64,000 nucleotides of DNA from an uncultured Candidatus Sumerlaeota bacterium (GTDB lineage: Bacteria > Sumerlaeota > Sumerlaeia > MVZB01 > JAJFLK01). Within the stretch, counting starts at the first letter, position 1. Each line of letters opens with the position of its first letter. The notes beneath the pieces were generated by a model that saw only the letters and a program-made list of their open reading frames with translations, had not been told where the DNA came from and searched no databases. A program made the position numbers and the translations under genes. Below are positions 4,377-62,737 of the stretch, piece after piece. The stretch is from the NCBI GenBank assembly GCA_964463045.1, contig CAYXAU010000018.1, positions 4,443-68,442 on the forward strand. Reading direction: 5' to 3'.

Positions 4377-5057
4377 ATGCGCGGCAAGGGTTTCACGCTC
4401 ATTGAGCTGCTGATCGTGGTGGCGATCATCGCGATCCTGGCGGCCATTGCGGTGCCGAACTTCCTGGAGGCGCAGGTCCGTTCGAAGGTCTCGCGGGTGA
4501 AGAACGACCAGCGAGCCTACGCCACGGCGTTGGAGTCGTATTACATCGACAACAACAACTATCCGGCCGTGGACAATTCGACGGCGGCCAACGAAGCGGC
4601 CCCCTTTGGCCATGGCGTCAATGCGCTGCCGAACGCCTCGACGTTCCTGCGGAACATGCCGACGTTCCGTCGCAAGCGGAACCAGGCTGACCCGCTCAGC
4701 ACGTTGACGACGCCGGTGTCCTACCTGAGCTCGATGCTCTCGGACACCTTCGCCAAGACGGCGGGCGCGATCTTCTCTTACTCGACAGCCGACGTCACCT
4801 TGGGGCGGGCGGCCGTCAAGGCCGGATGGATCATCTGGTCCTTCGGCCCGGACCTGGACGAGACGACGGCGCAATCGACCGGCGCCCAGTACGGCGGCAA
4901 CATCGGCGTCAGCAACGCCGGCGCCGAAGGGACGCGGGTTGAGACCGCCTACTACAACCCGCTCGGCCAGGTGCCGTCCCCGACGCTGATCGCGATCACC
5001 TATGACGCCACCAACGGCACGACGTCCCGCGGCGATATCTACCGCGTTAAGCAGTAG
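4377..5057 (+). CDS. prepilin-type N-terminal cleavage/methylation domain protein (GspG-like pseudopilin / type IV pilin-like)
   Basis: MRGKGFTLIELLIVVAIIAILAAIAVPNFLEAQ classic prepilin leader + hydrophobic helix; strong AGGAGG RBS. Confidence 0.8.
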   Translation: MRGKGFTLIELLIVVAIIAILAAIAVPNFLEAQVRSKVSRVKNDQRAYATALESYYIDNNNYPAVDNSTAANEAAPFGHGVNALPNASTFLRNMPTFRRKRNQADPLSTLTTPVSYLSSMLSDTFAKTAGAIFSYSTADVTLGRAAVKAGWIIWSFGPDLDETTAQSTGAQYGGNIGVSNAGAEGTRVETAYYNPLGQVPSPTLIAITYDATNGTTSRGDIYRVKQ

Positions 5058-5141: not shown

Positions 5142-5256
5142 CGTCCCGCCTCGCGTTGACGCCGCCGGCCAACCTCCCTTAAGATCGGACGGCAGAGGCC
5201 TTCGGGTCGCCAACCGTCGCGCCCCGGCCTGACCGGGGCGACGGGCTTTCCCCCGC

Positions 5257-6705
5257 ATGAGCGTTCCCCGTTTCCGACGCGCCTTGCTCGTCAACCCCCC
5301 GACGGGGCTTTTCCGGCGGGACGATCGCTGCCAATGCAAGGTCGAGGACCAGACGGTTCAGATCACGTTTCCGCCGATCGAGCTGGCTTTACTGGCCGCC
5401 GTCCTGCGCCGGGCCGGGGCCGAGCCCTTCGTCCGGGACTATCCGGCCCGCGGGGAGGGGTGGGCCCGATACGTCGCCGATCTGAAGGCCCTTGAGCCCG
5501 ATTTCGTGCTGGTCAACGTGGTGACGGCGACAGCGGCCGGCGATTTCCAGGCCTGCGCCGCCGCCAAAGAGACGCTCGGCCCCAAGGCGATGACCGCCGC
5601 CAAGGGCGAATACATGGAGGCTCTGGGGGTGGAGGCGCTCCGAGATCACCCTGAGGTCGACGTGGGCTTTCACGGGGAAGTCGAACGCGTGATCGAGAAG
5701 TTCCATCGGGGGGAGGCCCTGGCGACGTTGCCGGGGGTGATCTATCGGGATGGAGCCGCCGCCGACGGGCCGGGGCGGATCCATCGCAACCCCGGCCATC
5801 CGGTCGTCGACAATCTGGACGAACTCCCCTACCCGGCGCGCGATCTGCTGGAGAACGAACTTTACCGCAGCCCGGAGAGCGGGCGGCCGTTGACGGTGAT
5901 CCACGGCAATCGGGGCTGCCCGGCCCATTGCATCTTCTGCCCGGCGGGGGTGATTTCGGGCTTCAGCGTGCGTTATCGCTCGCCGGCGAACGTTCTCGGC
6001 GAGATCGAGGAGTGCGTCGAGCGGTTCGGCATCGACGAATTCCTCTTCCACGGGGACACGTTCACGCTCAACAAATCCTGGACGATCGAGCTGTGCGAAC
6101 GGATCGTCGAGCGGGGCCTCAAGATTCGGTGGGGTTGCAACAGCCGGGTGGACACGTTGGACGACGAACGAGCCGCGGCCATGAAGCGCGCCGGTTGTTG
6201 GGTGGTCGCCTTCGGCGTCGAAACCGGCAATCAGGACCTCCTCGACCGAATGAAGAAGGCCGCCACGCTCGCCGACGCCGAGCGCGCCGTCGCCGTCTGC
6301 AAGCGCCACGGTCTCCGCACGCACGCCTTCTTCGTCATCGGGCTGCCGTGGGAGACCGAGGCCACGCTGGCGCAAACCCTCGATTTCGCCCGGAAGCTCG
6401 ACACCGACTTCTTCGACTTCAACATCGCCTACCCGCTGCCCGGCACGGAATTTTACGAGATGGCCGTGGCGGAGAACCTCTTCGAGGCCCCGCCCGAAAC
6501 CGGCGGTTACGCCCGCGCCGCCGTCGGCTCCTACGAACTCTCCGCCGAACGCCTCACCGAGTGGCGCCGCCAGGCGCTCCTGGCCATGTACCTCCGGCCC
6601 GGCTATATCGCCCGCACGCTCCTCAAAAGCCGTTCCCCCCGCGTGACCGCCAACTACGTGCGGGCAGGGGCGCGCCGGCTAAGGCAGCTCCTGACCGCCT
6701 CCTGA
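5257..6705 (+). CDS. B12-binding domain-containing radical SAM protein (class B)
   Basis: N-terminal cobalamin-binding-like region; CPAHCIFCP (CxxxCxxC) radical SAM cluster motif; ~480 aa typical of class B rSAM. Confidence 0.8.
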   Translation: MSVPRFRRALLVNPPTGLFRRDDRCQCKVEDQTVQITFPPIELALLAAVLRRAGAEPFVRDYPARGEGWARYVADLKALEPDFVLVNVVTATAAGDFQACAAAKETLGPKAMTAAKGEYMEALGVEALRDHPEVDVGFHGEVERVIEKFHRGEALATLPGVIYRDGAAADGPGRIHRNPGHPVVDNLDELPYPARDLLENELYRSPESGRPLTVIHGNRGCPAHCIFCPAGVISGFSVRYRSPANVLGEIEECVERFGIDEFLFHGDTFTLNKSWTIELCERIVERGLKIRWGCNSRVDTLDDERAAAMKRAGCWVVAFGVETGNQDLLDRMKKAATLADAERAVAVCKRHGLRTHAFFVIGLPWETEATLAQTLDFARKLDTDFFDFNIAYPLPGTEFYEMAVAENLFEAPPETGGYARAAVGSYELSAERLTEWRRQALLAMYLRPGYIARTLLKSRSPRVTANYVRAGARRLRQLLTAS

Positions 6706-19708: not shown

Positions 19709-20582
19709 CCTGCCTAATTATGACGCAGTGAGCGACTGGGTGGCCGACTACGTGCGGCGGCGCGTTCTGGATTTCGCTCCTTCGGCGAAGCGCCCTTTCG
19801 TGCTCGGCCTGCCGACCGGCGGATCGCCGCTGGGGACGTATCGCCGCCTGGCCGAGTTTTACCGGCGCGGCGAGCTTTCCTTCAAGCACGTCGTCACCTT
19901 CAACATGGACGAATACGTGGGTTTGCCGCCGGATCATCCGGAGAGCTACCACAGCTACATGGAAAAGCACTTCTTCAGCCGGGTGGATATCGACCGCCGG
20001 CGGACGCACGTCCTCGACGGAAACGCCGCCGACCTGAACGAAGAGTGTCGCCGCTATGAGGAGCGGATCGCCGCCGTCGGCGGGATCGAGCTTTTCCTGG
20101 GAGGGATCGGCCCCGACGGGCACATCGCCTTCAACGAGCCGGGCTCGTCGCTCGCCTCGCGGACGCGCGTCAAGACGCTGGCCTACGACACGATCGTCGC
20201 CAATTCACGGTTTTTCGGCGGCGACGTCGATCAGGTGCCGAAACTGGCCCTCACGATCGGCGTGGGAACGTTCATGGACGCGCGAGAGGTTCTCATTATT
20301 ATTTCCGGTCTCGCCAAGGCCCACGCCCTCTATAACGCCATCGAATGCGGCGTCAATCACATGTGGACGGTCTCGATGGTGCAGATGCACCCGCACGCCA
20401 CGATCGTCTGCGACGAGGACGCCACGGCCGAGCTGCGCGTCCGGACGGTCAACTACTTCAAGGGGATCGAGAAAATGCTCGCCCGGCAGCCGACCTACCC
20501 CATGGCCCCCAAGAGCTTTCCCCTGGGCCCGGCTGCTCGGGCTGGCCGGATCAATACTCGCCGACGATCGCGATCTGAATGA
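19695..20582 (+). CDS. nagB: glucosamine-6-phosphate deaminase
   Basis: [39 protein letters not shown] motifs of NagB. Confidence 0.85.
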
Positions 20583-20958
20583 CGTTGATCCCTTTGGCCC
20601 GGTGGATCGTTCCCTGGGCCGTGACCTTCTTGCCCACGTAAGGCAGGAGGAGTTCGTTGGCCGTCTGCAGGCCGGAGGCGGGGGCCGGGTTGCGATAGAC
20701 GGCGACGTAAACCTCGCCCGATTCGTCGTCCAGGAGCCCGATCGGAAAGCCATTCTCGGCCCGGAACTGGCCCTGAGCCCTTCCGGTTTCGCCGCGGGCC
20801 CCATCGATCGCGTAGCTGGAAATATCGATGACCTCCCCCACGATCGTCTGACGGGCGGGCCTCCCCCCCTGGCCCAGCGCCACGGCCAGCAGTCCCCCGA
20901 CGAATGTCGGGAGCGCAAGCATGCCGATGATCCCCATCCTTGACCTGCGATGTTTCAC
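20551..20958 (-). CDS. hypothetical secreted protein
   Basis: signal peptide [22 protein letters not shown]; GC3 biased; no family recognised. Confidence 0.4.
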
Positions 20959-21420
20959 GGGACTCGCTCCTTCCTCAGCTCTGGTTCTGCTCGGTCCTCC
21001 AAGGCGACCGGTCGCCGCGCGCCGCGACTTGTTGCAACTAGGACCTCCCCCCCAAGGCCACCAGGATCAATGAAGCAGATGATGTGCCGCTCACGGGTTC
21101 GGGGGGAAAGGGCTCACGGTCGTCTTGACAAGAGGCGCGAGCCCGAGGTCTCGCCCTGGATACCTCTGTCGTCGTAGATGGCTGAAAAAAGATAACTTAA
21201 TTGCTCCGGCCAGGCCGAATCCGTCGATCGGCGGGGGCCGGTCGGGCCAACCCATCGTCCAACGGATTGCCTTCCACGATTAGGGCTGGAGCAGCAGGCG
21301 CGCTGAAGGGCCTGAAACAACGCAACCTGGCGCGCGACATCCGAAGGTATTGTAAACAGCCCAAGGCGCAACTGGACAGGCAGGATAGGGACCAGAACTT
21401 GAACCTGCGGAGGGAGTGTT

Positions 21421-21434
21421 GAGACGCGGGTCTC
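21421..21434. promoter_or_regulatory. perfect 5-4-5 palindrome GAGAC-GCGG-GTCTC, candidate enhancer (UAS) ~135 bp upstream of the sigma-54 promoter
   Basis: seen directly; position is typical for bEBP binding sites. Confidence 0.25.
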
Positions 21435-21561
21435 TCGCCGTTCAGGGCGAGCTAAGTTATTTCGTCTCAGTCGATCCCATACCGGAGCAGGTGCGAATGG
21501 CGACCACTCGTCGGTTGGATCGGGACGGCGTGAACTAAGACTATAACGCGTTTAAGTTTTG

Positions 21562-21576
21562 TGGAACGAAACCTGC
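21562..21576 (+). promoter_or_regulatory. sigma-54 (-24/-12) promoter TGGAACG-aaac-CTGC
   Basis: matches TGGCACG-N4-TTGC at 9/11 defined positions with exact GG-N10-GC spacing; ~66 nt upstream of the ATG at 21642. Confidence 0.45.
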
Positions 21577-21641
21577 GGAATATGCGCAAAGGAAGGGCAG
21601 AAATGCCGCACATGCCCGCGGATCGCAACAGGAGATCAACC

Positions 21642-22907
21642 ATGACCCGAATCCCTTCCCTGATCGTCGGCTTGGCGACTTTCCTCGGCCTGACCGTCCC
21701 GGCGGCAGCTCAGGAAGGCGCTCCGACGTTCTACCGGGACATCGTCCCCCTTCTGCAGCGGAATTGTCAGAGTTGTCATCGTCCGCAGGGGGCCAACCTG
21801 GGCGGGATGGTCGCCCCGATGGCGCTGGTGACCTACGCCGAAGTCCGGCCATGGGTTCGGTCGATCCTCCGACAGGTGGAGGATAATCAGATGCCCCCCT
21901 GGCACGCCTCGCCGGCCTTCAAGGGCGTCTTCGAGAACGAGCGTTCGCTCAGTGAGGAGGAAGTGGCCGTGATCGCCCGCTGGGCGCGGGCTGGAGCCCC
22001 CGCCGGACGGGAGGCCGAGGCGCCGCCGCCCATAGCCTTTCCCGAGGCCGGATGGGCCATCGGCGAGCCGGACCTCGTCCTGTCGTTTGACGAGCCCTAC
22101 GTCGTCGCCGATGAGGTCGAGGACCAGTACGTCAACTTTACGGTCGACGTTCCCGAAGACCTGCACGCCGAGGACCGTTGGATGCAGGCGTTGGAATTCA
22201 AGCCGGGCAGCGCCGTGGTTCACCACATCATCGGCTACGCCTATGCGCCTGGGACCGGGGCGATCGGCGCCGACCGGGGGATGGTGGGCGGGATCGCGCC
22301 GGGCAATGACCCGGAGAGTTGGCCTGAAGGTTACGGGATGATGCTTCGCAAAGGCTCCAAATTCACCTTCGCCATGCATTACCACAAGGAGAAAGGCCCC
22401 GGGACGGCGACGGCGGACCGCTCCAGCGTCGGCATCAAGTTCCATCCCAAGGGCTCGAAGGTTCGGCCCATGACGATCGAAGCGATCGGGAACATGGGTT
22501 TTGAGATTCCCCCGTTCCACAAGGAATGGCACGTCGGGGCCGCCAAGACGTTCGACCGTCCGATCGAAGTCCATTACTGGATGCCGCACATGCACCTGCG
22601 CGGGAAGTCAGCCACGTATACGGCCTTCTATCCCGACGGAGGGCGCGAGGTCCTGCTCGATGTCCCCCGCTACGACTTCAACTGGCAGACCTCTTATCAG
22701 TACCGCGAACCGAAGCTCTTGCCGGCCGGCACGCGCGTCGAGGTCCTGATGACCTATGACAACTCGGTGGAGAACGCCGCCGTCCCGAACCCGACGATCC
22801 CCGTCCGCTTCGGCGGCCCCACGACCGATGAAATGGCGCTCGGCTGGCTGGCCTATGCCTACGCCGACGAAACGCCGCAGGACGAGGCCGAGGCGGCGGG
22901 CGGATGA
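21642..22907 (+). CDS. secreted PSCyt1-type c-type cytochrome domain fused to PHM/DBH-like type-2 copper monooxygenase
   Basis: signal peptide; CQSCH haem motif, NQMPPW and ARWARAGAP (PSCyt1); VVHHIIGY, AMHYH, PHMHLRG, RYDFNWQ, GGPTTDEMALGW (DBH-like TRDEMC Met ligand region); AGGAG RBS. Confidence 0.65.
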   Translation: MTRIPSLIVGLATFLGLTVPAAAQEGAPTFYRDIVPLLQRNCQSCHRPQGANLGGMVAPMALVTYAEVRPWVRSILRQVEDNQMPPWHASPAFKGVFENERSLSEEEVAVIARWARAGAPAGREAEAPPPIAFPEAGWAIGEPDLVLSFDEPYVVADEVEDQYVNFTVDVPEDLHAEDRWMQALEFKPGSAVVHHIIGYAYAPGTGAIGADRGMVGGIAPGNDPESWPEGYGMMLRKGSKFTFAMHYHKEKGPGTATADRSSVGIKFHPKGSKVRPMTIEAIGNMGFEIPPFHKEWHVGAAKTFDRPIEVHYWMPHMHLRGKSATYTAFYPDGGREVLLDVPRYDFNWQTSYQYREPKLLPAGTRVEVLMTYDNSVENAAVPNPTIPVRFGGPTTDEMALGWLAYAYADETPQDEAEAAGG

Positions 22908-23006
22908 AAGCGCTCCCGGCCTGACGGGCCGAACGGCCGGATCGGGCTGGACTCGGCCCCCGGCCAACCCACTGAACTCATCTCCTTCCCTTCCCTTCTC
23001 GCCCAA

Positions 23007-23036
23007 CCGGGGCGGCGCCCGAAAGCGCCGCCCCGG
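23007..23036. terminator. GC-rich 12 bp perfect hairpin between convergent genes (possible bidirectional terminator, no U-tract)
   Basis: ccggggcggcgc-ccgaaa-gcgccgccccgg. Confidence 0.3.
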
Positions 23037-23148
23037 CTCGCCTGAAAGCCCGCCCCCGGCGGGAGGTTCGTCGGCGGCGGGGTCCCGGCTGGCCAGGCCG
23101 GGCGCGACGTCGGCCGCGCCGTCTCTCCTCAGCGGCGGCTGGAGGCGC

Positions 23149-25104
23149 TTAAGGCTGGCGGGAGGGAGGGCCGGCGTCGATGGTCTTCATCTTGCGCCAG
23201 AGCGTGGCCGGGTTGATGCCCAAGAGCCGAGCCGCGACCGAGCGCTTGCCGGCGGTGTATTCCAGGGTCCGGAGAATGTGAAGGCGTTCAAGCTCACGGA
23301 TGGTCAACGGTTCCCAACCGGTCGGTCGCAGGGCGTGAGCGGCCGCCGCCGACGGAGCGGAGGGGCCGCTTCGTGGACCGGAGGCTGCCGGGGGACTTTC
23401 GCGCTCGCGGGCGCGGCGGCGGTGAGCGATGCCCTGGAGGATCGAGACGACCTGGGTGCCGAGGACGGTCGCCCGTTCGATGACGTTTTCCAGTTCGCGG
23501 ATGTTGCCGGGCCACTCGTATTCCGTGAGGATCCGCATGTCGTCCTCGCCGACGATCGATTCACGCCGGACGGAGCCCTTGCCGTACTTCTCGACGAAGA
23601 AATCGACGAGCAGCGGGATGTCCTCGACGCGTTCGCGCAGGGGCGGGACGTGGATCGGCAGGACGTTCAATCGGAAAAACAGGTCCTGACGAAACAAACC
23701 TTCCTCGAGCAGCCTTTCCAGGTCGCGGTTGGTGGCGGCGATGAGGCGAACGTCGACCGAGAGTGTTTCGGTGCCGCCGACGCGCGAGAATTCGCGCTCC
23801 TGAATGAACCGCAGAAGCTTGACCTGCATGTTCAGGTCGAGCTCGCCGATCTCGTCCAGGAAGATCGTCCCCTTGTCAGCGGCCTCGAACCGGCCGATCT
23901 TGAGCGCCTCGGCCCCCGTGAACGCGCCCCGTTCGTGGCCGAACAGCTCGCTCTCGATGAGCGTCTCCGGAATGGCGGCGCAATTGACGGGCATGAAGAC
24001 CCGGTCCCGACGGGCTGAGTTATTGTGAATGGCCCGGGCGATGAGTTCCTTGCCCGTGCCGTTCTCGCCGGTGATCAGCACGTTGGCGTCGCTGGCGGCC
24101 GCCAGACGGGCCAGCCGAAGGACGCGCTGCATCGGAAGGGCCTTGCCAATGATCGGGCGGTCGCCGTGGACCTCCATCACGGCCCCGGCGTCCCGCTCGG
24201 CGGCTCCCCCCTTGGAAAGGGCCGAGAGAGCGGGGGGGTCCTCCGGCCCCTGCCGGCGCGCGGGCGAGAGGCCCTCCAGCGGGGCATAGCGGCCTTCCCG
24301 CTCGTAGATCAGATTCATATGGTAGATGGCCCCCGGGTGGCCGGGCCGATCGCGCAGGACGCGGTGGAACTGTTCGATGGCCTGGCTCACGTGACCCAAC
24401 TCGAGGCGGGCGATGCCGAGATTGCAGCGAACTTCGATCGTGGGCTCCAGCCGGGCGGGGTCATCCCCATGACGCTTCAAGTAGATTTCCAGGTGCTCGA
24501 CGGCCCGGGCGAAGTCACGCGCCTGAAAGTAGAGGTTAGCCAGGTGGCGGCGGGCGCCGTCGTGAGCCGGGTTGAGCCCCAGGGCGCGATGGAAGTAATG
24601 CTCGGCGGCTTCGGTCTCGCCATGGTTCCAGCAGGCGATGGCCAGGTAATAGGAACAGTCCGCCTGAAACTCGGCCCCATCGCCGAAGAACAGACCGAGA
24701 TAGAAACGATCGGGCGCGATGGCGACGGACGCCTCGGCCAGCCCGCCGAAGAGTTCGCGAGCCTGCTCGATGCGCCCTTGGTTGATCAGAATCTGGCCGA
24801 GATTGTATTGAGCCTCGACGTCGGTCCGGTCGTGGTCGAGGAGGGCGCGATAGTGCTTCTGGGCCTCGTCGGTCAGGCCGGCGTGATAGAGCCCGTGGGC
24901 GTAGCAACGGGCCACGTCGGGATCGTTCGGCGCGATCTGGCGGGCGCGCTTGAACTCCTTGAGGGCCGCGTCGTAGCGCATCTCGGAGAAGTGACGGATG
25001 CCTTCATGGAGCGCCAGAGCCGCCCCCACGACGGCCGCGCCGCAATGGGAGCACTGCCCGGCGCCGAGGGCCAGGCTCCGCCGACACTGGACACAACTCA
25101 ACAT
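23149..25104 (-). CDS. sigma-54-dependent transcriptional activator (bEBP) with N-terminal zinc-ribbon + TPR sensor region and C-terminal Fis-type HTH
   Basis: GENGTGKE Walker [16 protein letters not shown] (GAFTGA) motif, C-terminal [23 protein letters not shown]; N-terminus CxxC...CxxC then ~6 TPRs instead of a receiver domain. Confidence 0.8.
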
Positions 25105-25156: not shown

Positions 25157-25609
25157 TCAGGAGGGCTTGAACCGGAGCACGAGCGCCGCACCAATGGCGA
25201 GAAGGGCGAAGCCGACGAAAAGCGCCGGGTGAGGGGTCTCTTTCGGCGGGTACTTGATCATGCTGAAGAGAACGTTGACCACCGGCGCGCCGCCGAACAC
25301 CAGCGGCGGCACGAGAAGGGGGGTTCCGCCCGTCCGGAGGGCGTAAATCACGCAGAGCGCCCCGGCGGCCCCGAGCGCCCCCGCCACGGTCGCGATCGCC
25401 ACGCCCTTGAACCCGAACGCCCCCGCCTCCTGGCCCGCCAGCAGGACACCTCCGGGAACGAGAACGGCCATGAGGAAATAGGCAAACCCGACGCAAAGGA
25501 AGGCCCGGATCGGGCTGCCCAGCTCGACCTGGCCCATGTGGATCGTCGGCACGTAGAGCCCCCAGGTCAGGATTGTCCCAAGCACGAAAATCAGCCACGT
25601 CATCGTCAA
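25157..25609 (-). CDS. small 4-TM membrane protein (DMT/EamA-like half)
   Basis: four hydrophobic helices; immediately upstream of the bEBP gene on the same strand. Confidence 0.45.
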   Translation of the reverse strand: MTMTWLIFVLGTILTWGLYVPTIHMGQVELGSPIRAFLCVGFAYFLMAVLVPGGVLLAGQEAGAFGFKGVAIATVAGALGAAGALCVIYALRTGGTPLLVPPLVFGGAPVVNVLFSMIKYPPKETPHPALFVGFALLAIGAALVLRFKPS

Positions 25610-25940
25610 GAGGCCCCTTTCCCAGAATGGCCGGCCAAGGGCCGGGGCCGGCCAGTCTAAGGCTTCCCGAAGGGGCCTTCAATGATCCGGGGCCCGCTTC
25701 GATGGGGGTTGAAAACATCGCTCCGGGGCCCTAAGCTCAACCGGGAGGACTGGAAGTCAAGGCTCCTCAGCGCACCCCGTCGGAGCCGCTCGAAAGGCGA
25801 TGGCCCCACCGGAGCGAAGGCCAGGGGCCGGCGCCGGAGCGAGAGGCTTGATTTTCGGGCGAGAGATTGTGAAAAATTTCTCGAAGTCGGGGCGCTCGGC
25901 CTAGACGGCGCTCATCCGCTCCGGACGGGAGCGTTCGACC

Positions 25941-26597
25941 ATGGGTCGCTACAATTTCCCTCCCGAAGAACTTCAGCGCCGCGCGGCGCTCTCCTCCGAG
26001 CTTAAGAAGAAGTTCAAGGCCAAGCGGGCCGCCGCGGCCGCCGCCGCCGGGAAAAAAGGACCCGCCAAGGACGAGAAGAAGAAGGCCGCCGAGGAAACGC
26101 CGAAAATTGACTACGCGGCTCTCAAGGCCAAAGCCCGCGACCGGCGGAATTTTCTGGCCGGAACGCTCAATTTCACCCTCGGGATGACGATCACCACCCT
26201 CGGCGTCCAGCGATTCATGTTTCCGCGGATGCTTTTCGAGCCCCAGAGCGCATTCGTTGCCGGGCGGCCCGACGAGTTCCTGCCGAACAACCCCATCTTC
26301 TTCAAGGACTTTCGCACGTGGATCATCCGCCTGGGGAACCGGATCATCGCCCTTTCGGGCCGCTGCACGCACCTGGGCTGCACGCCGGCCTGGCTGACCT
26401 CCGACGGCAAATTCAAGTGCCCATGCCACGGCAGCGGCTTCCGCATCACGGGGGTGAACTTCGAGGGCCCGGCCCCCCGCGCGCTGGAACGGTTCAAGAT
26501 TGAATTGGCCGACGGGAGGCTCCGCGTGGAGACGGCCAAGCTCTTTCTGTTCGAAAACGGCGGCTGGGAGAATCCGGAGTCCTATGTGACCGTCTGA
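25941..26597 (+). CDS. Rieske [2Fe-2S] subunit of a cytochrome bc-type complex, Tat signal preceded by Lys/Ala-rich N-terminal extension
   Basis: CTHLGC and CPCHGS Rieske boxes; RDRRNFLAG Tat motif; ~55 aa KA-rich N-terminal tail. Confidence 0.85.
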   Translation: MGRYNFPPEELQRRAALSSELKKKFKAKRAAAAAAAGKKGPAKDEKKKAAEETPKIDYAALKAKARDRRNFLAGTLNFTLGMTITTLGVQRFMFPRMLFEPQSAFVAGRPDEFLPNNPIFFKDFRTWIIRLGNRIIALSGRCTHLGCTPAWLTSDGKFKCPCHGSGFRITGVNFEGPAPRALERFKIELADGRLRVETAKLFLFENGGWENPESYVTV

Positions 26598-26651
26598 GAT
26601 CGCGGCGGCGGCGCTCGGCGCGCCGGCCCGCGATAATCGGCGAGGGCGTCG

Positions 26652-27434
26652 ATGCAAGCCTTCCTCAATAAAGTCTACGAAACTCAGCTCTGGAAATCCC
26701 TCTTTCGGCACGGCTTGCCGCGGGACCCGCGCAACCGTTCGCTGGCGATCCTGACCAACGTTTTCCTGCACCTTCACCCGGTGCGCGTCCGAAGCGGCGC
26801 TCTCCGCGTCCGCTTCACCTGGTGCATGGGCGGCCTCACGTTTTTCATCTTCCTCGTGCTCACGTTCACCGGCGTCCTGCTGATGTTTTATTATCATCCC
26901 AACGCGCGAGACGCCTATCCGGATATCCAGAAACTCGAATCGGGGGACGTCCCCTTCGGCATGCTGATGCGGAACATGCATCGCTGGGGGGCGCATCTGA
27001 TGGTGATCTCCATCTGGTTGCACATGTTCCGCGTCTTTCTGACGGGCAGTTACAAGCCGCCGAGGGAATTCAATTGGGTCGTGGGGGTCATCTTGCTGGT
27101 CTTGACGCTGTTGCTCAGCTTCACGGGTTATCTTTTGCCGTGGGATCAGTTGGCGATGTGGGCCGTTACCGTCGGGACGAACATGGCGCGGGCGACGCCC
27201 TTGGTCGGCCACGAGGGTCCGGGAGCCCAATTCCTGAAGATCGGCGATTTTCAGCTCGTGACGTCTCGCAGCGACGTGCGTTTCGCCCTCCTCGGCGGGC
27301 GAATCGTCGGCCCGGGCGCGCTGTTGAGGTTTTACGTCCTGCATTGCATCCTGTTCCCCCTGATCGCCGGCGTCTTCATGGCGATTCATTTCTGGAGAAT
27401 CCGGAAGGACGGCAATATCTCGGGCCCCGTCTAG
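26652..27434 (+). CDS. cytochrome b (N-terminal half, b6-like) of bc complex
   Basis: 4 TM helices with conserved haem-ligand histidines ([20 protein letters not shown]), typical split cytochrome b. Confidence 0.85.
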
Positions 27435-27480
27435 ACGGGCCCGCCCGCGGACCCAGCCCCCTCAACGGAGCCCAGCCTCG

Positions 27481-28611
27481 ATGATGGACCGCCTCCTGGA
27501 CCCCCATTGGTGGAACGAGTTCCTGTTCCCCATTCTCTTCCGTCCAATCAACTCCGTCTTCGCGCCCGATCCCCGCTATGTGTTAACGTTCCTCTTTGTC
27601 GGCTTCGTTCTGGCCTGCGTTTTCCTCAAGCAATTGACCCACCCGGTGGTGGTCGGCGCCCCGGCCGCGCTGTTCGCCGTCTTGTTCGTGATCGGCCTGG
27701 TCAACCCGGACTTTCAGTTGCTCATCTTCAAGGGGGACAACGTCCCGATCGTGATTCTCCTTGTCGTCGTCCCGTTTTATACGTGGTGGGGGCTCCGTCA
27801 GGCCGTGCTGAACGACGAGTATAAGCACAAGGCCGGCCGCGACCTGCTCCGCATGTCCAATACGCCCGACAACGATCCAGAGGACAAGGTTCACACTTTT
27901 CCTTTTCTTGTCCATCCGGAATTCATTTCGACCGTCGTCTGCTCCGTTCTGCTGATGGTCTGGTCGATCACGATCGACGCTCCCCTGGAGCAGCCCTCCG
28001 AGTCGGCCCGCACACCCAATCCCTCCAAGGCTCCCTGGTACTTTCTCGGTTTGCAGGAGATGCTCGTTTATTTTGATCCCTGGCTCGCGGGCGTCGTGAT
28101 GCCGAGCTACATCATCGTGGGGTTGATGGCCATCCCTTATTTCGACGCCAATCCGAAAGGGAACGGATACTTCACCTGGGAGGAACGAAAGTACGCCATC
28201 TCGTTCTTTCTTTTCGGCTTTGTTATCCTCTGGGTCATCCTGATCGTCAACGGGACGCTCCTGCGCGGTCCCGGTTGGAACTTCTTCGGTCCGTTCGAGT
28301 ACTGGGATCACAACAAGGTGGAAGCCCTGACCAACGTCAATTTCAGCGAGATGCTCGGCTTCGATCCGGCGACCCCCTGGTGGCTCCGTGAGGCCCCGGG
28401 ATTTCTGGCGTTGCTGATCTATTTTATCGGTCTTCCGATTGTGGGGTGGTTCGTCTTTCGGAAAATCGCCGCGCAGTACGGCGTGCTCCGGTACGGCGTG
28501 GCCTCCCACTTTATCCTGGCCATGATGCTCCTGCCGATCAAAATGTATCTCCGGTGGTTGTTCAACCTGAAGTATATCATCGCGATTCATGAGATCGGGG
28601 TGAACATCTGA
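27481..28611 (+). CDS. cytochrome b C-terminal half (subunit IV-like), extended
   Basis: PNPSKAPWYFLGLQE (PEWY-like) motif, multiple TM helices. Confidence 0.75.
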   Translation: MMDRLLDPHWWNEFLFPILFRPINSVFAPDPRYVLTFLFVGFVLACVFLKQLTHPVVVGAPAALFAVLFVIGLVNPDFQLLIFKGDNVPIVILLVVVPFYTWWGLRQAVLNDEYKHKAGRDLLRMSNTPDNDPEDKVHTFPFLVHPEFISTVVCSVLLMVWSITIDAPLEQPSESARTPNPSKAPWYFLGLQEMLVYFDPWLAGVVMPSYIIVGLMAIPYFDANPKGNGYFTWEERKYAISFFLFGFVILWVILIVNGTLLRGPGWNFFGPFEYWDHNKVEALTNVNFSEMLGFDPATPWWLREAPGFLALLIYFIGLPIVGWFVFRKIAAQYGVLRYGVASHFILAMMLLPIKMYLRWLFNLKYIIAIHEIGVNI

Positions 28612-28664
28612 ATCTCGGGCGGCGGCGCCGCCGGTAGCCACCGCCGAGGAACTGAGCCCGAACG

Positions 28665-31600
28665 ATGCGACGCAATGGTATCAGCCGACAGGGCATGTTC
28701 AACGTCTGGGCGATGCTGCTCACGCTGACGGGCCTGTGGGCCGTGCTCAAGGATTACAATCCGCATTGGTTCCAGCGGGGCAATTGGAAGAAGTTTCAGG
28801 TGGCCTTCCGCGAGTTAACCCTTGGGCGCGCGCAGGAGGCCATCGAGAAGGAGAACGCGAAGATCGAGGCGGTCTACCAGGAGCGCCTGGCGGAGCTGGA
28901 CCGGAAGATCCGGGAGGTCACCGACGCCGCGCGCAGCGTCAATCAGGAGGAGCTGATCCAGGCCAAGCGCCGCGAGATCGACGAGCTGACGCGCCTGGAA
29001 TACGAGAAGAATCAGGCCCTCTCCTTCGCCAAGAGCCTCATGGGCTCGGCCCGGTCGAAGTACGAATTTCTGAAGAACGATCCCTACAGTAAATCCGTGG
29101 AAACGGAGCGGGCTCGCCAGGAGTACGAGCGCTATTTCGAGGATGTTCAACGGCTGACGCCGGCCGCCGAGGCGGCTTACGCTGATCTCAATCGGGCGAA
29201 GGAGGAACTGAGCCTCCTGCAAGCGGGTCCGGCGCCGCTGATTCGCGAGAAGAGCGCCATCTTCGCCGAGCGGGACCGATGGCGCAACGAGGTCGAGGCG
29301 ATCCGGCCGAGCGACGCGGTGAGCTTCCTGGCCAGCGTCGCCCGTGACGTGCCCCTGGCCGACTGGATCGATCCCAAGTACAACCTTCGACAAACGGTGC
29401 TTGACGGCCTTCCCGACCTCACCGGCGCCCCGAAGGTGGACCGTTGCACGACCTGTCACGTCGGGATCGACGACCCCGGCTACGACGACCCGAGCCTACC
29501 AATGGTCTTCCGCGCCCATCCGAAGCTTGAGCTTTACGTTGGGCCGAAGTCCCCGCATCCACTGGAGCAGTTGGGCTGCACCTCCTGTCACCTGGGCCGC
29601 GGCTACGGGACGACGTTCAAACTGGCCGCCCACACGCCGGACACGGAGGAACAGGCCACGGAATGGCGCCGTCGCTATGGATGGAAAGACCTCCATTATT
29701 GGGACTACCCGATGCTTCCGAAACGCAACATGGAGGCCATGTGTTTCACCTGTCATAAAACCAATCTGGGATATGAGCTCAGCATGGCCCGCTCGGTGTT
29801 CGAGGGGCGGCGCATCTACGAATATCGGGGTTGTCACGGTTGTCATAAAATCGACGGCGTGAGCGACGACATGGCGAAGATCGGCCCGACGTTGGAACAC
29901 GTCGCCGTCAAACTGAATCCCGACTGGACGCCCCGTTGGATTTCCGGCCCCCGGAAATTCTACCCCACAGCCCGCATGCCCCACGCGTTCGGCCATCGCA
30001 TCCCGATTCGTGATACCTTCCCGGAATTCTTTGAAACGATGGAGCATGAAACGGAACCGGCCCTCTGGCAGGAGATCGAGCGCCAATTGGAGGAAGATCA
30101 CGCCCATATGGTCCGTGAAGAGGCGGCGATGATCGAGGGAATCACCGCGCTTCTCTACGCACGGTCTCGGGACCTCCCGCTGGAAGAGCCCCCAGCCGAG
30201 GCGGGCGATCCCGCCCTCGGGCGTCAGATCGTCAAAGTTCACAATTGTCTGGGGTGTCACGAGCTCCACGACGGCGAGATCCAATCCCCCGGCCAGGGGT
30301 ACGCGCCTGACTTGTCGAAAGTCGGCTCAAAAACCAATCGCCCATGGCTTTTCAACTGGCTGCGCGAGCCCAAGCGTTACTGGCCGGAGGCGCGCATGCC
30401 CGATCCCCGTCTGACTCCGGAAGAGACCAATCACGTCGTCGCCTATCTGCTGACGCTCCGCGATGACGCCTACATCGAGGCGCCACGCGACCAGAGCTCG
30501 GACGACGAAATGCTGGAACTGGCGGTGCGCTATCTACGCTCGCGCCTCAGCGAAGCCGAGGCCCGCCAAACGGCGACGGCGATGTCGCCCGAGGAACGCC
30601 GCCTGCTCGTGGGCGAGGAAACGATCTACCGCAACGGCTGCTTCGGATGCCATGACATTCCAGGCTTTGAGGACCGCGGCCGCATCGGGACGGAGCTGAC
30701 CGGCGAGGGATTTAAGGAAATCGAGCGCTTCGACTTCGGGATGCATCGTTTCGTGCACATTCCCCACTTCCGGCACGAATGGGTCCGATTAAAGGTCAAG
30801 CAACCGCAGATCTATTTCCTCGGCAAGGTGATCAGCCCTTATGAACAGACTTTGAGCATGCCCTGGTTCGGCTTCAGCGACGAGGACGCCGATAAGATTA
30901 CGACCTTCGTGCTCGGTCAGACGGGCAAGCAACCTCCCGAAAAGTATGTATACACGCCGGGAGGGGATCAGCAGGCCATTCTTGAAGGGCGGAAGCTGAT
31001 CGAGCGCAGAAATTGCATCGGGTGCCACAAAATCGGCATGGGCTGGCAGTGGGTGGACACCGATGAGCACGGCTTTGACGAGGATCTCGTCTGGGTGACG
31101 GAGCCGCTGGTGGCCCTGGGGGACGCGAATTTGCCCGAGGGTCGCTATTCGCGGATCGCCCAGGTCGGCGAAGCCAAAGCCCAGGACAAGGTCCTCATCC
31201 CCGCCGAAGGGTTCGTCGATACACGCCAACTGGCGCGATTCGGCGAGGATTACCTCTCGATCGGAGAGCTTCTCGGCGAGGCTCCGATCGAAGTCAACGT
31301 CGGTTCGCGAGAGGAAATCCGCGTGGCGATGGAGCGGCCGGCGACGCTCAAGGTCGAGGGCGTCCAGGAAGGTTATATCAAACGCTTTTACGAAGATTCG
31401 GCGTTGGCCCCGCCGATCCTCCGGCGGGAAGGCGCCAAGGTCCGGCCGCAGTGGTTCTTCAATTTCCTCAAGCACGTGACGGACATCCGCAACCACATCC
31501 AGGTGCGGATGCCCCAGTGGGAATGGAACGACGCCGAGGCCAACGCCGTGGTGCGTTTCTTCGCCGCCGCGGCGGGCGAGCCGTTCCCGTTCGAATCGGA

Positions 31601-32111
31601 GCCCATCTCACCGTTGAGCGAAGAGGTTCACGGAACGACGGCCCGGGAGCTGTTCGGCCTGCCGGGGACGCCCGAATACGAACAGAGCCTCAAATGTTTC
31701 AGTTGCCACCCAGCGGGCGAGCTGGTTCCGACCAATCCGCGCGAGAACTGGGGCCCGAACCTTTACCTGGCTCAGGAACGGCTGAAGTTCTCATTCATTC
31801 GATCCTGGTTGCGCAACCCCCAGGCGTGGTCGCCCGGCACGCGGATGCCGAACATATTCTACGACTATAGCGATCCGGACGGCGTCGTCGAACTGCGGCC
31901 CGATGGCGAGCGCCAGATCGTCGCCTTGGCCGAGATGTTGCATTACCTGCCCAACCTCGAGGAGGTTCGCCTGGCAGCCCAGGCGGAGGCCGAACGGCGC
32001 AAAACGGCCGTCGAGACCGGGCCGGGGGAAGTGTTTGAAGAAGATGACGGGGCCGAAGTCTTCGAGGAGGACGAAGAACCCGAGGTTTTCGAAGAAGACG
32101 GCGGAGTCTAA
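28665..32111 (+). CDS. large multihaem (8 CxxCH) c-type cytochrome subunit of the bc complex
   Basis: N-terminal TM anchor; CTTCH, CTSCH, CFTCH, CHGCH, CLGCH, CFGCH, CIGCH, CFSCH motifs; acidic C-terminal tail. Confidence 0.8.
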   Translation: MRRNGISRQGMFNVWAMLLTLTGLWAVLKDYNPHWFQRGNWKKFQVAFRELTLGRAQEAIEKENAKIEAVYQERLAELDRKIREVTDAARSVNQEELIQAKRREIDELTRLEYEKNQALSFAKSLMGSARSKYEFLKNDPYSKSVETERARQEYERYFEDVQRLTPAAEAAYADLNRAKEELSLLQAGPAPLIREKSAIFAERDRWRNEVEAIRPSDAVSFLASVARDVPLADWIDPKYNLRQTVLDGLPDLTGAPKVDRCTTCHVGIDDPGYDDPSLPMVFRAHPKLELYVGPKSPHPLEQLGCTSCHLGRGYGTTFKLAAHTPDTEEQATEWRRRYGWKDLHYWDYPMLPKRNMEAMCFTCHKTNLGYELSMARSVFEGRRIYEYRGCHGCHKIDGVSDDMAKIGPTLEHVAVKLNPDWTPRWISGPRKFYPTARMPHAFGHRIPIRDTFPEFFETMEHETEPALWQEIERQLEEDHAHMVREEAAMIEGITALLYARSRDLPLEEPPAEAGDPALGRQIVKVHNCLGCHELHDGEIQSPGQGYAPDLSKVGSKTNRPWLFNWLREPKRYWPEARMPDPRLTPEETNHVVAYLLTLRDDAYIEAPRDQSSDDEMLELAVRYLRSRLSEAEARQTATAMSPEERRLLVGEETIYRNGCFGCHDIPGFEDRGRIGTELTGEGFKEIERFDFGMHRFVHIPHFRHEWVRLKVKQPQIYFLGKVISPYEQTLSMPWFGFSDEDADKITTFVLGQTGKQPPEKYVYTPGGDQQAILEGRKLIERRNCIGCHKIGMGWQWVDTDEHGFDEDLVWVTEPLVALGDANLPEGRYSRIAQVGEAKAQDKVLIPAEGFVDTRQLARFGEDYLSIGELLGEAPIEVNVGSREEIRVAMERPATLKVEGVQEGYIKRFYEDSALAPPILRREGAKVRPQWFFNFLKHVTDIRNHIQVRMPQWEWNDAEANAVVRFFAAAAGEPFPFESEPISPLSEEVHGTTARELFGLPGTPEYEQSLKCFSCHPAGELVPTNPRENWGPNLYLAQERLKFSFIRSWLRNPQAWSPGTRMPNIFYDYSDPDGVVELRPDGERQIVALAEMLHYLPNLEEVRLAAQAEAERRKTAVETGPGEVFEEDDGAEVFEEDEEPEVFEEDGGV

Positions 32112-36519: not shown

Positions 36520-37668
36520 TCAATGGTCGACAAATACGCGGTCCGGGATCGGCCGGGCGGGGGGCGTGAAGGGCTCGTAGAAGAAGTTGCGCTGGCGGAG
36601 TACGAAGCCGAGCTCGGCGGCCAGGCGGGCGAGGTGATCCTTCGAATACATGAAGTGCGTCCCGGCGGCGCGGACGACGTTCTCCTCCAACATGAGGGAT
36701 CCCAGATCGTTCACGCCGAAGAGGAGCGAAAGCTGGGCGATCTTATCCCCCTGCGTCACCCAACTGGCCTGGAGGTTGTCGATATTATCGAGAAAGAGGC
36801 GGGCGACGGCGACGGTTTTCAGATATTCGAAGGCGCCGCAGAAACGATCTTTGTAGGGGGTGTTCTTCGGCTGGAAGGTCCAGGCGATGAAGGCCGTGAA
36901 GCCGCCGGTTTCGTCCTGCAGATCGCGCAGGCGCCGCAGGTGCTCGACGCGTTCGGCGTAGGATTCGATGATGCCGAACATCATCGTGGCGCTCGTCCGG
37001 AGGCCAAGGCGGTGAGCGACGCGCATAACCTCGATCCAGTCGTCGGCCGAGGTCTTCTGGGGGGAGATGCGGCCCCGGACGCGATCGCTCAGAATCTCGG
37101 CCCCGCCGCCCGGGATCGAATGAAGCCCCGCCCGCATGAGCCGTCCGATGACCTCATCGAGGGCGAGGCCGAAATGATCGCGGAAGAAGGAAATCTCCGT
37201 CGGCGAGAAGCAGTGGAGGTGAATCTGCGGGTAGTTCCGCCGAAACCACCGGAGGAGGTCCTCGTAATACTCGAAGGGGAGCCCGGGGTGCAGGCCCCCC
37301 TGCATGAGGACCTGATTGCCGCCCGCCGCCAGCAGTTCGTCGACCTTCCGGCGCAGCTCGGTCTCGGTGATGACATAGGCGTCGGCGGCGCCTTCCTTGC
37401 GGTAAAAGGCGCAGAAGCTGCAATCGATCTGGCAGACGTTCGTGTAGTTCAGGTTCCGGTCGATGATGAACGTGACCACGGGCTCGCGGTGCTTGCGCAT
37501 CCGGACGGCGTGAGCGGCCCGGCCGAGCGCGATCAGGTCGGGAGTTTCAAACAGACGGACGGCCTCGGCGTCGGTCAGGCGTTCGCCCGCGACGGCGCGC
37601 TCGAGGATCGGTCGGATCGCCGCGTCCCGCGCCGATCCTGATCTGAGGGGTTCCGCCAGCTCGAGCAT
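36520..37668 (-). CDS. radical SAM enzyme, MqnC/MqnE (futalosine-pathway) family
   Basis: NYTNVCQIDCSFCAFYR cluster motif (CxxxCxFC), family-typical length and GGxE motifs. Confidence 0.7.
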   Translation of the reverse strand: MLELAEPLRSGSARDAAIRPILERAVAGERLTDAEAVRLFETPDLIALGRAAHAVRMRKHREPVVTFIIDRNLNYTNVCQIDCSFCAFYRKEGAADAYVITETELRRKVDELLAAGGNQVLMQGGLHPGLPFEYYEDLLRWFRRNYPQIHLHCFSPTEISFFRDHFGLALDEVIGRLMRAGLHSIPGGGAEILSDRVRGRISPQKTSADDWIEVMRVAHRLGLRTSATMMFGIIESYAERVEHLRRLRDLQDETGGFTAFIAWTFQPKNTPYKDRFCGAFEYLKTVAVARLFLDNIDNLQASWVTQGDKIAQLSLLFGVNDLGSLMLEENVVRAAGTHFMYSKDHLARLAAELGFVLRQRNFFYEPFTPPARPIPDRVFVDH

Positions 37669-37681
37669 CGTCGTCGGTGAG

Positions 37682-38815
37682 TCAAGCGGCCTCGGGGATT
37701 TCGCGGTAAAGCGTGTCGCGCCGGACGGGGATACGCCCGGCTTCGAGGATCAACTTGCGCAATTCCTTGACGGAGAGGCCCTGGGGCGTGGTCGCGCCGG
37801 CCATATGGTAGATCGTTTCTTCGACGACGGTGCCGTCGAGGTCGTTGGCGCCGAAATGCTGAGCGATCTGGGCGATCTTCGTGCCGACCATGATCCAGTA
37901 GGATTTGATATGGGCGAAGTTATCCAGCATGAGACGGCCAACGGCGATCATGCGCAGGTCGGTGGCGCCGCTCGGTTTCGGCAGCTCGCTCATGGCCGTG
38001 TTCTCCGGATGAAACGCCAGGGGGATAAAAACCTGAAATCCGCCGGTCTCGTCCTGAAGATCGCGGAGCTGGATCAGGTGATCCACCCGGTCCTCGATCG
38101 TCTCCTTGTGGCCATAAAGCAAGGTGGTATTGGACTTAAGGCCGAGCCGATGGGCGATGCGATGGATGTTGAGCCAGCCCTTGCCGGTGAGCTTCTCGCC
38201 GCAGACCTCGCGGCGGCTGCTCGGCGTCAGCACCTCGGCGCCGCCGCCGGGGAGCGAACCCAAGCCCGCCTCGATCAAATCCTCCAGCACGGCGCGGACG
38301 TGCTTGCCGGAGATCTTGGAGAGATAGGCGATCTCGACGGCGGTGAAGGCCTTGAGGTGCACGTGCGGCAGGCGCGCCTTCAAACCCCGCAGCATCTCCA
38401 GGTAATAGGCATACGGGAGGTCCGGATGCAGACCGCCGACGATGTGAAGCTCATCGCCGCCGGGGGGCATCTCCTCGACGGCCTTGTTGAAGATTTGTTC
38501 CAAGGAATAAGTCCAGGCGCCCGGGGAATCCGCCGTGGGACGATAGAAGGCGCAAAACCGGCAGGTGTTGACGCAAACGTTCGAATAATTGATGTGGCGA
38601 TTGATGTTGTAGTAGGTCTTGTTGCCGTGGCGCGCCTCGCGCACGCGGTTGGCCAGGGCCCCGAGACCCAGGAGGTCCGGCGTCCGGAAAAGCATGAGGC
38701 CGTCCTCGGCCGAGAGCCGCCGCCCTTCCTCCACCTTGGCGGCGATCGCCTCCAACTCGGGATCGGCAAATCCCTCCAGGCCGCAGGCGGCTGGCTCCGG
38801 GCACGGCTTATCCAT
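37682..38815 (-). CDS. radical SAM enzyme, MqnC/MqnE family paralog
   Basis: NYSNVCVNTCRFCAFYR; start set at internal ATG 38815 (upstream 290 codons of ORF are low-complexity). Confidence 0.7.
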   Translation of the reverse strand: MDKPCPEPAACGLEGFADPELEAIAAKVEEGRRLSAEDGLMLFRTPDLLGLGALANRVREARHGNKTYYNINRHINYSNVCVNTCRFCAFYRPTADSPGAWTYSLEQIFNKAVEEMPPGGDELHIVGGLHPDLPYAYYLEMLRGLKARLPHVHLKAFTAVEIAYLSKISGKHVRAVLEDLIEAGLGSLPGGGAEVLTPSSRREVCGEKLTGKGWLNIHRIAHRLGLKSNTTLLYGHKETIEDRVDHLIQLRDLQDETGGFQVFIPLAFHPENTAMSELPKPSGATDLRMIAVGRLMLDNFAHIKSYWIMVGTKIAQIAQHFGANDLDGTVVEETIYHMAGATTPQGLSVKELRKLILEAGRIPVRRDTLYREIPEAA

Positions 38816-48293: not shown

Positions 48294-48865
48294 GTTGTCT
48301 CTTCCCTCCCTTCCTTTTTGAATCGCCGCCCGGCCTTACGGCCCGGACTTACGGCAGTTCATCAAATGGCTCGCCTTGATGGCCTGGCTCGGTGGGTCCT
48401 CCTTCTACGGCGGGTCGACGGGGGCCTCCGGGGTGGATCGCGCGGGTCGGGGCTCGCGGCCTCGCTTACCGGACATCCCCCGTTTGAAACCTTCTCCTCT
48501 TGCCTTGTGCGCGCCTTTGCCTGGACGTTCCCCCGCCGCCCGAGGGCCGGTCGCGCCAGTGCTTGCGTGCCTCAAACCTATATAGCTCAAGCCTTACGAT
48601 GTCAACCCCAGAATTTTCCTGGGCGGGAGTTTTCGGGCGCCCCCCACCGGGCGACCGGAAGGGGGGAGGGGAAGACGCCCTCCGCCAAGCCACCGAGGGG
48701 GGGTAAAGGGACCAGAGACGCCAATCGGAGCGGGGCTTGCTTTCAAGCGCCGATCGGTCATGATGAGGCTCCACCCACCCGCAGGGTGCGCAGCCGATTC
48801 CCCTCCGGGCTGTGGCCTTCATAAGAGGGCCCGCTATTTCCCAGGATATTGATTCCAGAAGACTT

Positions 48866-62447: not shown

Positions 62448-62737
62448 GAGCGGACTCCTATCGGGGCCTCAGCCCCCGGGCCGGCGTCGAGAAATCAGCC
62501 GCCGTCCTCCTCGGGAGGCCAACCAACGGACGCGACGGCGGAGCTGGACGCGGGCGACATCCTATCAGCGCCGCCCCCGCGAGTCCAAAGCCCTGAGCAC
62601 CCGCGCCACGCCGGCGCCGAGTCCCGCCGATCCGGATCGTTGAGCGATCGTCGCCTGGGCGATCGCCCGACTCACCTTTTGGCGACGGCCGCCCGGAACT
62701 CCCTCGAGATGCTCTCCAAACCCCCCTCCCTTGGATG

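Follow-up and report, generated by a model that had tools for sequence, protein, structure and literature searches.

The spacer at positions 20959-21641 of a 64-kb stretch of DNA (the window), taken from contig CAYXAU010000018.1 of an uncultured Candidatus Sumerlaeota bacterium, separates two divergent genes, one for a cytochrome c/PHM-like copper monooxygenase and one for a small secreted protein. Within these 683 non-coding nucleotides (nt) the monooxygenase gene is preceded by an element, P(+), which resembles the -24/-12 promoters of sigma-54 and which is, with a probability of roughly 0.55, a functional sigma-54 promoter. The initial annotation had arrived at the same reading from the motif, a palindrome upstream of it and an activator gene downstream. 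These are insufficient to carry it, and the sigma-54 promoter remains the best reading by virtue of a mirrored second motif in the spacer and of promoters in other phyla. Because the second motif mirrors the first and the sigma-54 promoters of the same gene pair in other phyla are strong, signal-dependent expression of the monooxygenase is plausible. If the promoter is real, the monooxygenase would be silent until an enhancer-binding protein is activated, and the inducing signal would provide a direct route to its function. As a regulatory element P(+) is of an ordinary, well-known kind; a more interesting by-product of the analysis is the conserved pair of small secreted protein and cytochrome c/PHM-like monooxygenase, together with its recurrent sigma-54 control.

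The features on which the argument depends are the following:

20551-20958, minus strand: partner gene, encoding a 135-residue secreted protein of no Pfam family, with a GTG start, divergent from the monooxygenase gene.
21075-21089, minus strand (read from 21089 to 21075): P(-), sigma-54-like element CGGCACATCATCTGC, 8/11 matches.
21182-21199, minus strand: TAAGTTATCTTTTTTCAG, mirrored copy of the candidate upstream site, in minus-strand reading.
21453-21470, plus strand: TAAGTTATTTCGTCTCAG, candidate upstream activating site for P(+).
21562-21576, plus strand: P(+), sigma-54-like -24/-12 element TGGAACGAAACCTGC, 9/11 matches to TGGCACG-N4-TTGC.
21642-22907, plus strand: monooxygenase gene, encoding 421 residues: a two-copper monooxygenase core of PHM/DBH fold, preceded by a signal peptide and a c-type cytochrome domain (CxxCH).

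Mirrored Sigma-54-like Elements in the Divergent Spacer

P(+) lies in the spacer on the coding strand of the monooxygenase gene. Its match count, its exact GG-N10-GC spacing (G21563, G21564 ... G21575, C21576) and its end 66 nt before the ATG at 21642 are as first annotated; its start precedes that codon by 80 nt. The predicted transcription start, near 21588, would give a 5′ untranslated region (UTR) of 54 nt. Among minus-strand sites of the spacer, P(-) alone reaches 8/11 matches. It ends 117 nt before the GTG codon (20958) of the small-protein gene, and the predicted start is near 21063.

Upstream of each element lies one copy of an 18-nt sequence. Its core, the octamer TAAGTTAT, occurs just twice in the 64 kb when both strands are searched, compared with 0.02 occurrences expected, and the 18-mer pattern TAAGTTAT-N6-TCAG is likewise found only twice in the window. 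The two copies are on opposite strands, one starting 110 nt upstream of the P(+) GG and the other 111 nt upstream of the P(-) GG. When the GG-N10-GC anchors were held fixed, a match of at least 14/18 at equal offset (±2) was obtained in 0.2% of 1000 shuffles (P ~0.002), a value tempered by the fact that P(-) and its pairing with TAAGTTAT were found post hoc. This mirror geometry is the strongest local argument for functional GG-N10-GC elements, and it suggests that the upstream site would be TAAGTTAT-N6-TCAG, replacing the palindrome that had been proposed in that role.

The palindrome itself, a perfect GAGAC-GCGG-GTCTC at 21421-21434 (no strand), is present as described, but as an enhancer-binding-protein site it is a chance-level feature. 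Inverted repeats with arms of 5 base pairs (bp) and spacers of 0-10 nt occur about 21 times per kb in the window, those with a spacer of exactly 4 about twice per kb, and three repeats with 5-bp arms fall within 21360-21520, the 160-nt zone in which an enhancer would be sought. Because such repeats are so frequent, the palindrome is without evidential value, and it was rejected as an activator site. A second copy was found neither elsewhere in the window nor in L087-L090, which are loci of activator orthologues.

No coding signal was detected in the spacer, where small open reading frames (ORFs) lack a signal in GC content at third codon positions (GC3) and are not coding. No Rfam match was obtained in the window or the spacer, which excludes riboswitches and small RNAs of known families. 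A global alignment of the two promoter halves beyond the 18-nt element was not significant (p=0.07). Since the halves are otherwise unalignable, a recent inverted duplication is ruled out as the source of the symmetry. Matches to the IHF site around TAAGTTAT and TATAACGCGTTTA are poor, as judged by eye. The spacer also holds a GC-rich palindrome, GGCGACCGGTCGCCG (21003-21017), in the predicted leader of the small gene, and a direct copy of it with 80% identity, GGCGACCACTCGTCG (21499-21513), 50-64 nt upstream of P(+). Close to the two sigma-54-like motifs there are three instances of CGTGA[AG]C.

From this arrangement a mechanism can be proposed in which the spacer would serve as the divergent control region of a two-gene periplasmic module, the small secreted protein being transcribed leftward and the monooxygenase rightward. 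Each gene would be preceded by its own weak-consensus sigma-54 promoter, and each promoter by TAAGTTAT-N6-TCAG about 110 nt upstream of the -24 GG, or roughly -135 from the predicted start. The usual position of an enhancer-binding protein is around -135 from the transcription start. Sigma-54 holoenzyme would wait in a closed complex at each promoter and would fire only once the complex is remodeled by an activated AAA+ enhancer-binding protein that loops over from its upstream site; without the signal the module would be off. The simplest activator would be the adjacent zinc-ribbon/TPR enhancer-binding protein encoded at 23149-25104. That two mirror-image enhancer and promoter units co-induce the module under this orphan protein, which carries no receiver domain, is put forward tentatively and, taken as a whole, is doubtful. 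If it were true, a widespread copper monooxygenase family with more than 5600 homologues would be a recurrent signal-induced target of sigma-54, which would help in the search for its inducer and its substrate.

Recurrence of the Gene Pair and of Sigma-54 Promoters in Other Phyla

The partner gene is judged to be coding because its GC3 is 0.82. In 12 of 80 genomic loci that carry a monooxygenase homologue (L004, L006, L007, L009-L014 and L016-L018), a homologue of its product (about 130 residues; 37%-53% identity) is encoded directly 5′ of the monooxygenase gene and in the same orientation, and the two window genes therefore constitute a conserved pair. In a tblastn search, the 135-residue protein matched the small gene of L006 with E=1e-26. 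The divergent arrangement of the two genes is found solely in the window.

In three of these loci, and in a fourth where the monooxygenase gene has no small partner, sigma-54-like motifs precede the module:

L006 (Nitrospirales): TGGCACGTAGGTTGC, 11/11 matches, 64-70 nt before the small gene.
L012 (Rhodothermaeota): TGGCACGCACCATGC, 10/11 matches, 53-65 nt before the small gene.
L004 (Hydrogenedentota): TGGCATACTTCATGC, 8/11 matches, 66 nt before the small gene.
L019 (Nitrospirales): TGGCACTCATCTTGC, 10/11 matches, 81 nt before the monooxygenase gene, the same motif-to-gene distance as in the window.

The 200 nt upstream of the operon start were compared with expectation in 78 loci of the family. 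Sites with at least 9/11 matches were found five times versus 1.5 expected (P=0.02) and sites with at least 10/11 matches three times versus 0.13 expected (P=3e-4). The opposite strand of the same regions gave one site and none at these two cut-offs. An activator gene within 6 kb was found in L004 and L006 only, the two loci in which sigma-54 motifs before the module and an activator gene coincide. Each of these activators has a receiver-PAS-AAA+-HTH architecture, and in L006 there is also a histidine kinase. The motif enrichment and the activator genes alongside in L004 and L006 are taken as evidence that sigma-54 control of the module is real, if in a minority of lineages. The module carries strong sigma-54 promoters in Nitrospirales, Rhodothermaeota and Hydrogenedentota, with two-component activators in two of the loci. 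Such recurrence in several phyla strengthens the route from signal to function, the more so as sensor and activator genes lie alongside in two loci.

The L006 and L004 operons encode a small protein and a monooxygenase homologous to those of the window (42%-57% identity) and have a sigma-54 motif 64-70 nt before the first gene and an adjacent activator gene. They differ from the window in that the operon is co-directional, a DUF2911 gene follows the monooxygenase gene and the activator is a receiver-PAS two-component protein (with a kinase in L006). The window, by contrast, has a divergent gene pair with no DUF2911 gene after it, and its activator belongs to the zinc-ribbon/TPR type. L006 contains a further, near-palindromic sigma-54-like site, TGGCACGATTCGTGCCA (4738-4754 of that locus; 10/11 matches on the plus and 9/11 on the minus strand), which lies between the activator gene and a gene for a receiver-only response regulator, upstream of the perfect promoter at 5406-5420.

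Chance Matches and Possible Housekeeping Promoters

Taken alone, the P(+) motif is no more than chance would supply. The GC content of the window is ~66%, and the composition of GC-rich genomes overlaps the GC-rich sigma-54 promoter consensus (PMC12316311). Because of this overlap, false-positive matches are to be expected in a genome like this one. Nine GG-N10-GC sites with at least 9/11 matches occur in the window, the other eight being mostly intragenic, as against 10.7 ± 3.2 in first-order and 7.9 ± 2.6 in third-order Markov shuffles. The chance of such a site in any one 200-nt upstream region is ~1.5%-2%. A weight matrix was derived from 43 curated sigma-54 promoters (22 from E. coli and 21 from Desulfomicrobium; table S2 of PMC12316311), and with it P(+) obtains 11.7 bits, which places it among the lowest 5% of the curated set (median 17.7). 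Four sites in the window score as high as P(+) or higher, compared with 2.0 expected. By simple counting P(+) is ordinary, the curated promoters having 7-11 matches, and with the extended consensus YTGGCACGrNNNTTGCW the count is again 9/11. Of the mismatches, A at -23 (9% of the curated promoters) and C at -15 (30%) are tolerated, for example in TGGAACGCTCTTTGC and in astC TGGCACGAACCCTGC. The G at -11 has no counterpart among the 43. The description of P(+) as a textbook promoter was, for these reasons, overstated. P(-) is weaker still, with a score of 9.4 bits and a C in place of the 95%-conserved T at -26. In a genome of 66% GC, neither a 9/11 sigma-54 match nor a 5-bp palindrome carries evidential weight by itself. 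Apart from P(+), the sole site with at least 9/11 matches outside the ORF calls is CGGCACGAAGATCGC (37872-37886, minus strand), ~120 nt upstream of the minus-strand ORF 36520-37749.

These properties of the motifs weigh against P(+) and P(-) as promoters, and so do several observations in related loci. The sigma-54 motif is present in just ~5 of the 78 family loci. It is absent from L083-L086, which hold the closest monooxygenase homologues (60%-63% identity) and have sigma-70-like promoters of the form TTGnnn-N17-18-TAGnnT. In L094 and L095, the loci of the closest small-protein homologues, neither a monooxygenase gene nor an activator gene nor a sigma-54 motif was found. The neighborhoods of the activator orthologues, L087-L093, contain no intergenic motif with at least 9/11 matches and no TAAGTTAT, and a monooxygenase module accompanies none of six activator orthologues (43%-62% identity). 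Finally, the activator gene of the window is convergent with the monooxygenase gene, and hairpins lie between the two.

The GG-N10-GC element might then be a chance match in a GC-rich genome, and the gene be transcribed by a housekeeping sigma factor. Besides the chance-level frequency and low score of P(+), the sigma-70-like promoters of the closest homologues and the lack of conserved activator adjacency favor this explanation. Transcription could start from one of two places. One is a weak sigma-70-like candidate:

21515-21544, plus strand: TTGGAT-N18-GACTAT (or TTGGAT-N16-AAGACT).

It is unique among plus-strand sequences of the spacer in matching TTGnnn-N15-19-nAnnnT and falls below the threshold of the consensus scan, which detected no sigma-70 promoter in 20500-23500. 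The other is the -10-like TAAGTT at 21453-21458, whose mirrored copy at 21199-21194 would serve the small gene. TAAGTT fits a -10 form, TA[AG]nnT, that is found before at least five genes of the window and again in related loci, and a sigma-70 reading of the mirrored octamers is possible for this reason; it is a further point against a sigma-54 promoter. Both copies lack a correctly spaced TTG -35 box, for which another regulator might substitute, as well as a correctly spaced TGn extension, and starts from these positions would leave long 5′ UTRs of 176 and 229 nt. The monooxygenase gene is not preceded by the full form of this lineage, TTGnnn-N17-18-TA[AG]nnT. That form occurs eight times in the window (4.7 expected), including the following sites:

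5156-5185, plus strand.
25709-25737, plus strand.
25654-25682, minus strand.
48575-48605, minus strand.
62559-62588, minus strand.

It also occurs in L083 and L087-L089, and GTAGGCTTG is a conserved instance upstream of activator orthologues; examples of its -10 hexamer are TAGACT, TAGGCT and TAAGCT. A chance motif leaves unexplained why each TAAGTTAT copy is followed by a sigma-54-like motif at the same distance, 110 nt in one case and 111 nt in the other, with the P of ~0.002 given above. As the main rival, a housekeeping promoter is to be taken seriously but is the less likely reading.

The Neighboring Enhancer-Binding Protein

The initial annotation placed a sigma-54 activator gene beyond the 3′ end of the monooxygenase gene, and this is confirmed: its end lies 241 nt past the stop codon, in convergent orientation. 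The relevant features are as follows:

23007-23036, no strand: perfect 12-bp GC hairpin CCGGGGCGGCGC / GCGCCGCCCCGG, 100% complementary, with a 6-nt loop.
23149-25104, minus strand: sigma-54 enhancer-binding protein with a zinc ribbon, TPR repeats, an AAA+ domain with GAFTGA, and HTH_8.
25157-25603, minus strand: 148-residue gene immediately upstream of the activator gene, no Pfam match.

The activator matches PF00158 (E=7.5e-71) and HTH_8 (E=1.4e-11), and the GAFTGA motif is at 23928. No RpoN box was found in the 64-kb window (of a 69-kb contig), and the use of sigma-54 and presence of rpoN are inferred indirectly, from the intact GAFTGA loop of this adjacent protein. A second, imperfect hairpin of 13 bp is located at 23049-23081, also between the monooxygenase and activator genes, and the two hairpins are likely to be bidirectional terminators that lack a T-tract.

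Whether this protein regulates P(+) is another matter, and the assignment is tentative, with the odds against it. P(+) could be a genuine sigma-54 promoter under a different, unlinked enhancer-binding protein, the neighbor controlling distant genes together with its 148-residue partner. The company kept by TPR-type activator orthologues fits such a division. A small gene (136-147 residues, family unassigned) lies upstream of the activator in five of six orthologue loci and is the sole recurring neighbor, its likeness to the 148-residue gene being one of size and position only. In three relatives the activator and small gene follow a MacB/FtsX-type ABC transporter (~1150 residues), and the monooxygenase module is never present. 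Moreover, the activators that do adjoin the module, in L004 and L006, are of the other, receiver-PAS-AAA+ type with a histidine kinase, and the convergent orientation with terminator-like hairpins points the same way. On the other side, no second activator gene exists in the 64-kb window, and immediate adjacency of an activator gene together with a sigma-54-like motif would occur by chance at roughly 1% × 2% per gene, by our estimate. An unlinked regulator is on balance rather unlikely.

A third explanation, that a small non-autonomous mobile element spans 21182-21470 and that the TAAGTTAT...TCAG arms are its imperfect terminal inverted repeats, with no regulatory role, is very improbable: the 18-nt arms are 78% complementary and bound a 289-nt segment with CTGA...TCAG at its outer ends, and an insertion would account for the unusual length of the 683-nt spacer, but no further copies were found in the window or fetched loci, no target-site duplication is evident in the flanks, the best-conserved bases of the arms are the inner and not the outer ends, and the equal distance to two GG-N10-GC motifs outside the element is left unexplained.

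The reading of P(+) as a functional sigma-54 promoter is thus preferred. The chance that an activator gene is the immediate neighbor of a given gene is ~1% (an estimate), and the chance that motif and neighbor coincide somewhere in the ~55-gene window is also ~1%. It is this coincidence, together with the family-level enrichment of sigma-54 sites and the mirror geometry, that sets the probability at ~0.55.

Comparison with Known Sigma-54 Systems

P(+) shares with nifH, glnAp2, pspA and Pu, which are -24/-12 promoters with an activating site ~100-150 bp upstream, the GG and GC 10 nt apart, and with K. pneumoniae nifH and E. coli astC and norV a TGGnACG -24 element and a CTGC -12 element. As at other enhancer-dependent sigma-54 promoters, the site is intergenic, the predicted 5′ UTR is short, a GAFTGA activator is encoded adjacent and a candidate upstream element is found at about -135 from the predicted start. 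The differences are the weak match (A at -23, C at -15 and G at -11), the nature of the upstream site, a single AT-rich 18-mer candidate instead of the usual dyad or tandem sites, and the fact that P(+) is known from sequence alone.

Divergent sigma-54 promoter pairs that share a control region include those of the Klebsiella nifLA/nifF and Pseudomonas dmpR/Po types. The window resembles them in having back-to-back -24/-12 elements ~470 bp apart with candidate activator sites between them, and differs in that each promoter has its own equidistant upstream element and not one shared site.

The Monooxygenase and Its Relatives

The start of the monooxygenase gene at ATG 21642 is secure because a good ribosome-binding site, AGGAGA at 21630-21635, precedes it and the product begins with a signal peptide. 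The label of copper monooxygenase given in the initial annotation proved sound, with a cytochrome domain in addition. In 40 homologues C42, C45 and H46 (the CxxCH motif), H194, H195, H246, H316, H318 and M398 are invariant, so that the copper-ligand pattern of an HH pair plus one further histidine at CuH, and of HxH and a methionine at CuM, is conserved throughout. From their spacing, we take H194, H195, H246, H316, H318 and M398 to correspond to H107, H108, H172, H242, H244 and M314 of PHM. The AlphaFold model has a predicted confidence (pLDDT) of 85.4, and the top 31 Foldseek matches in the Protein Data Bank (PDB) are all DBH or PHM (E 6e-11 to 6e-8), namely human dopamine beta-hydroxylase and rat PHM, in keeping with a two-domain beta-sandwich fold. 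At the sequence level, Pfam Cu2_monoox_C (PF03712) scores 14.2 bits, below the cut-off of 23 (E=0.031), and PF01082 (Cu2_monooxygen) gives no match to the protein.

The predicted structure thus resembles PHM and DBH (PDB 1phm and 4zel) in fold (Foldseek E ~6e-11, probability 1.00) and the protein has the same six copper ligands (HH, H, HxH, M) at similar spacing. It differs from them in being bacterial, secreted and fused to an N-terminal c-type cytochrome domain, its sequence is only 15%-18% identical to theirs, and the Pfam match is subthreshold. The cytochrome domain presumably replaces ascorbate as electron donor.

A search of the literature found no characterization of cytochrome c-PHM fusions; the family is large, with more than 5600 homologues, and uncharacterized. 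In the databases searched, the nearest non-identical homologue is 63% identical. The only near-identical contigs, L081 and L082, are more than 99.9% identical, and the next relatives have at most 63% protein identity and different gene contexts. A metagenome scan with the N-terminal domain of the activator returned one truncated locus, L091.

In the window the activator and 148-residue genes lie beside a Rieske/cytochrome b cluster instead of the transporter genes seen in relatives. This cluster (25941-32111, plus strand) consists of co-directional genes for a Rieske protein, the N-terminal part of cytochrome b, a 376-residue membrane protein and a 1152-residue ORF, and is divergent from the operon of the activator and 148-residue genes. 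Among the relatives of the monooxygenase, positions 2409-6768 of L083, a single metagenomic contig, hold three tandem paralogues (430, 427 and 410 residues), each with its own sigma-70-like promoter. Several unlinked copies of the monooxygenase gene are found in many genomes, as in the Hydrogenedentota isolate NORP43, from which four loci were obtained.

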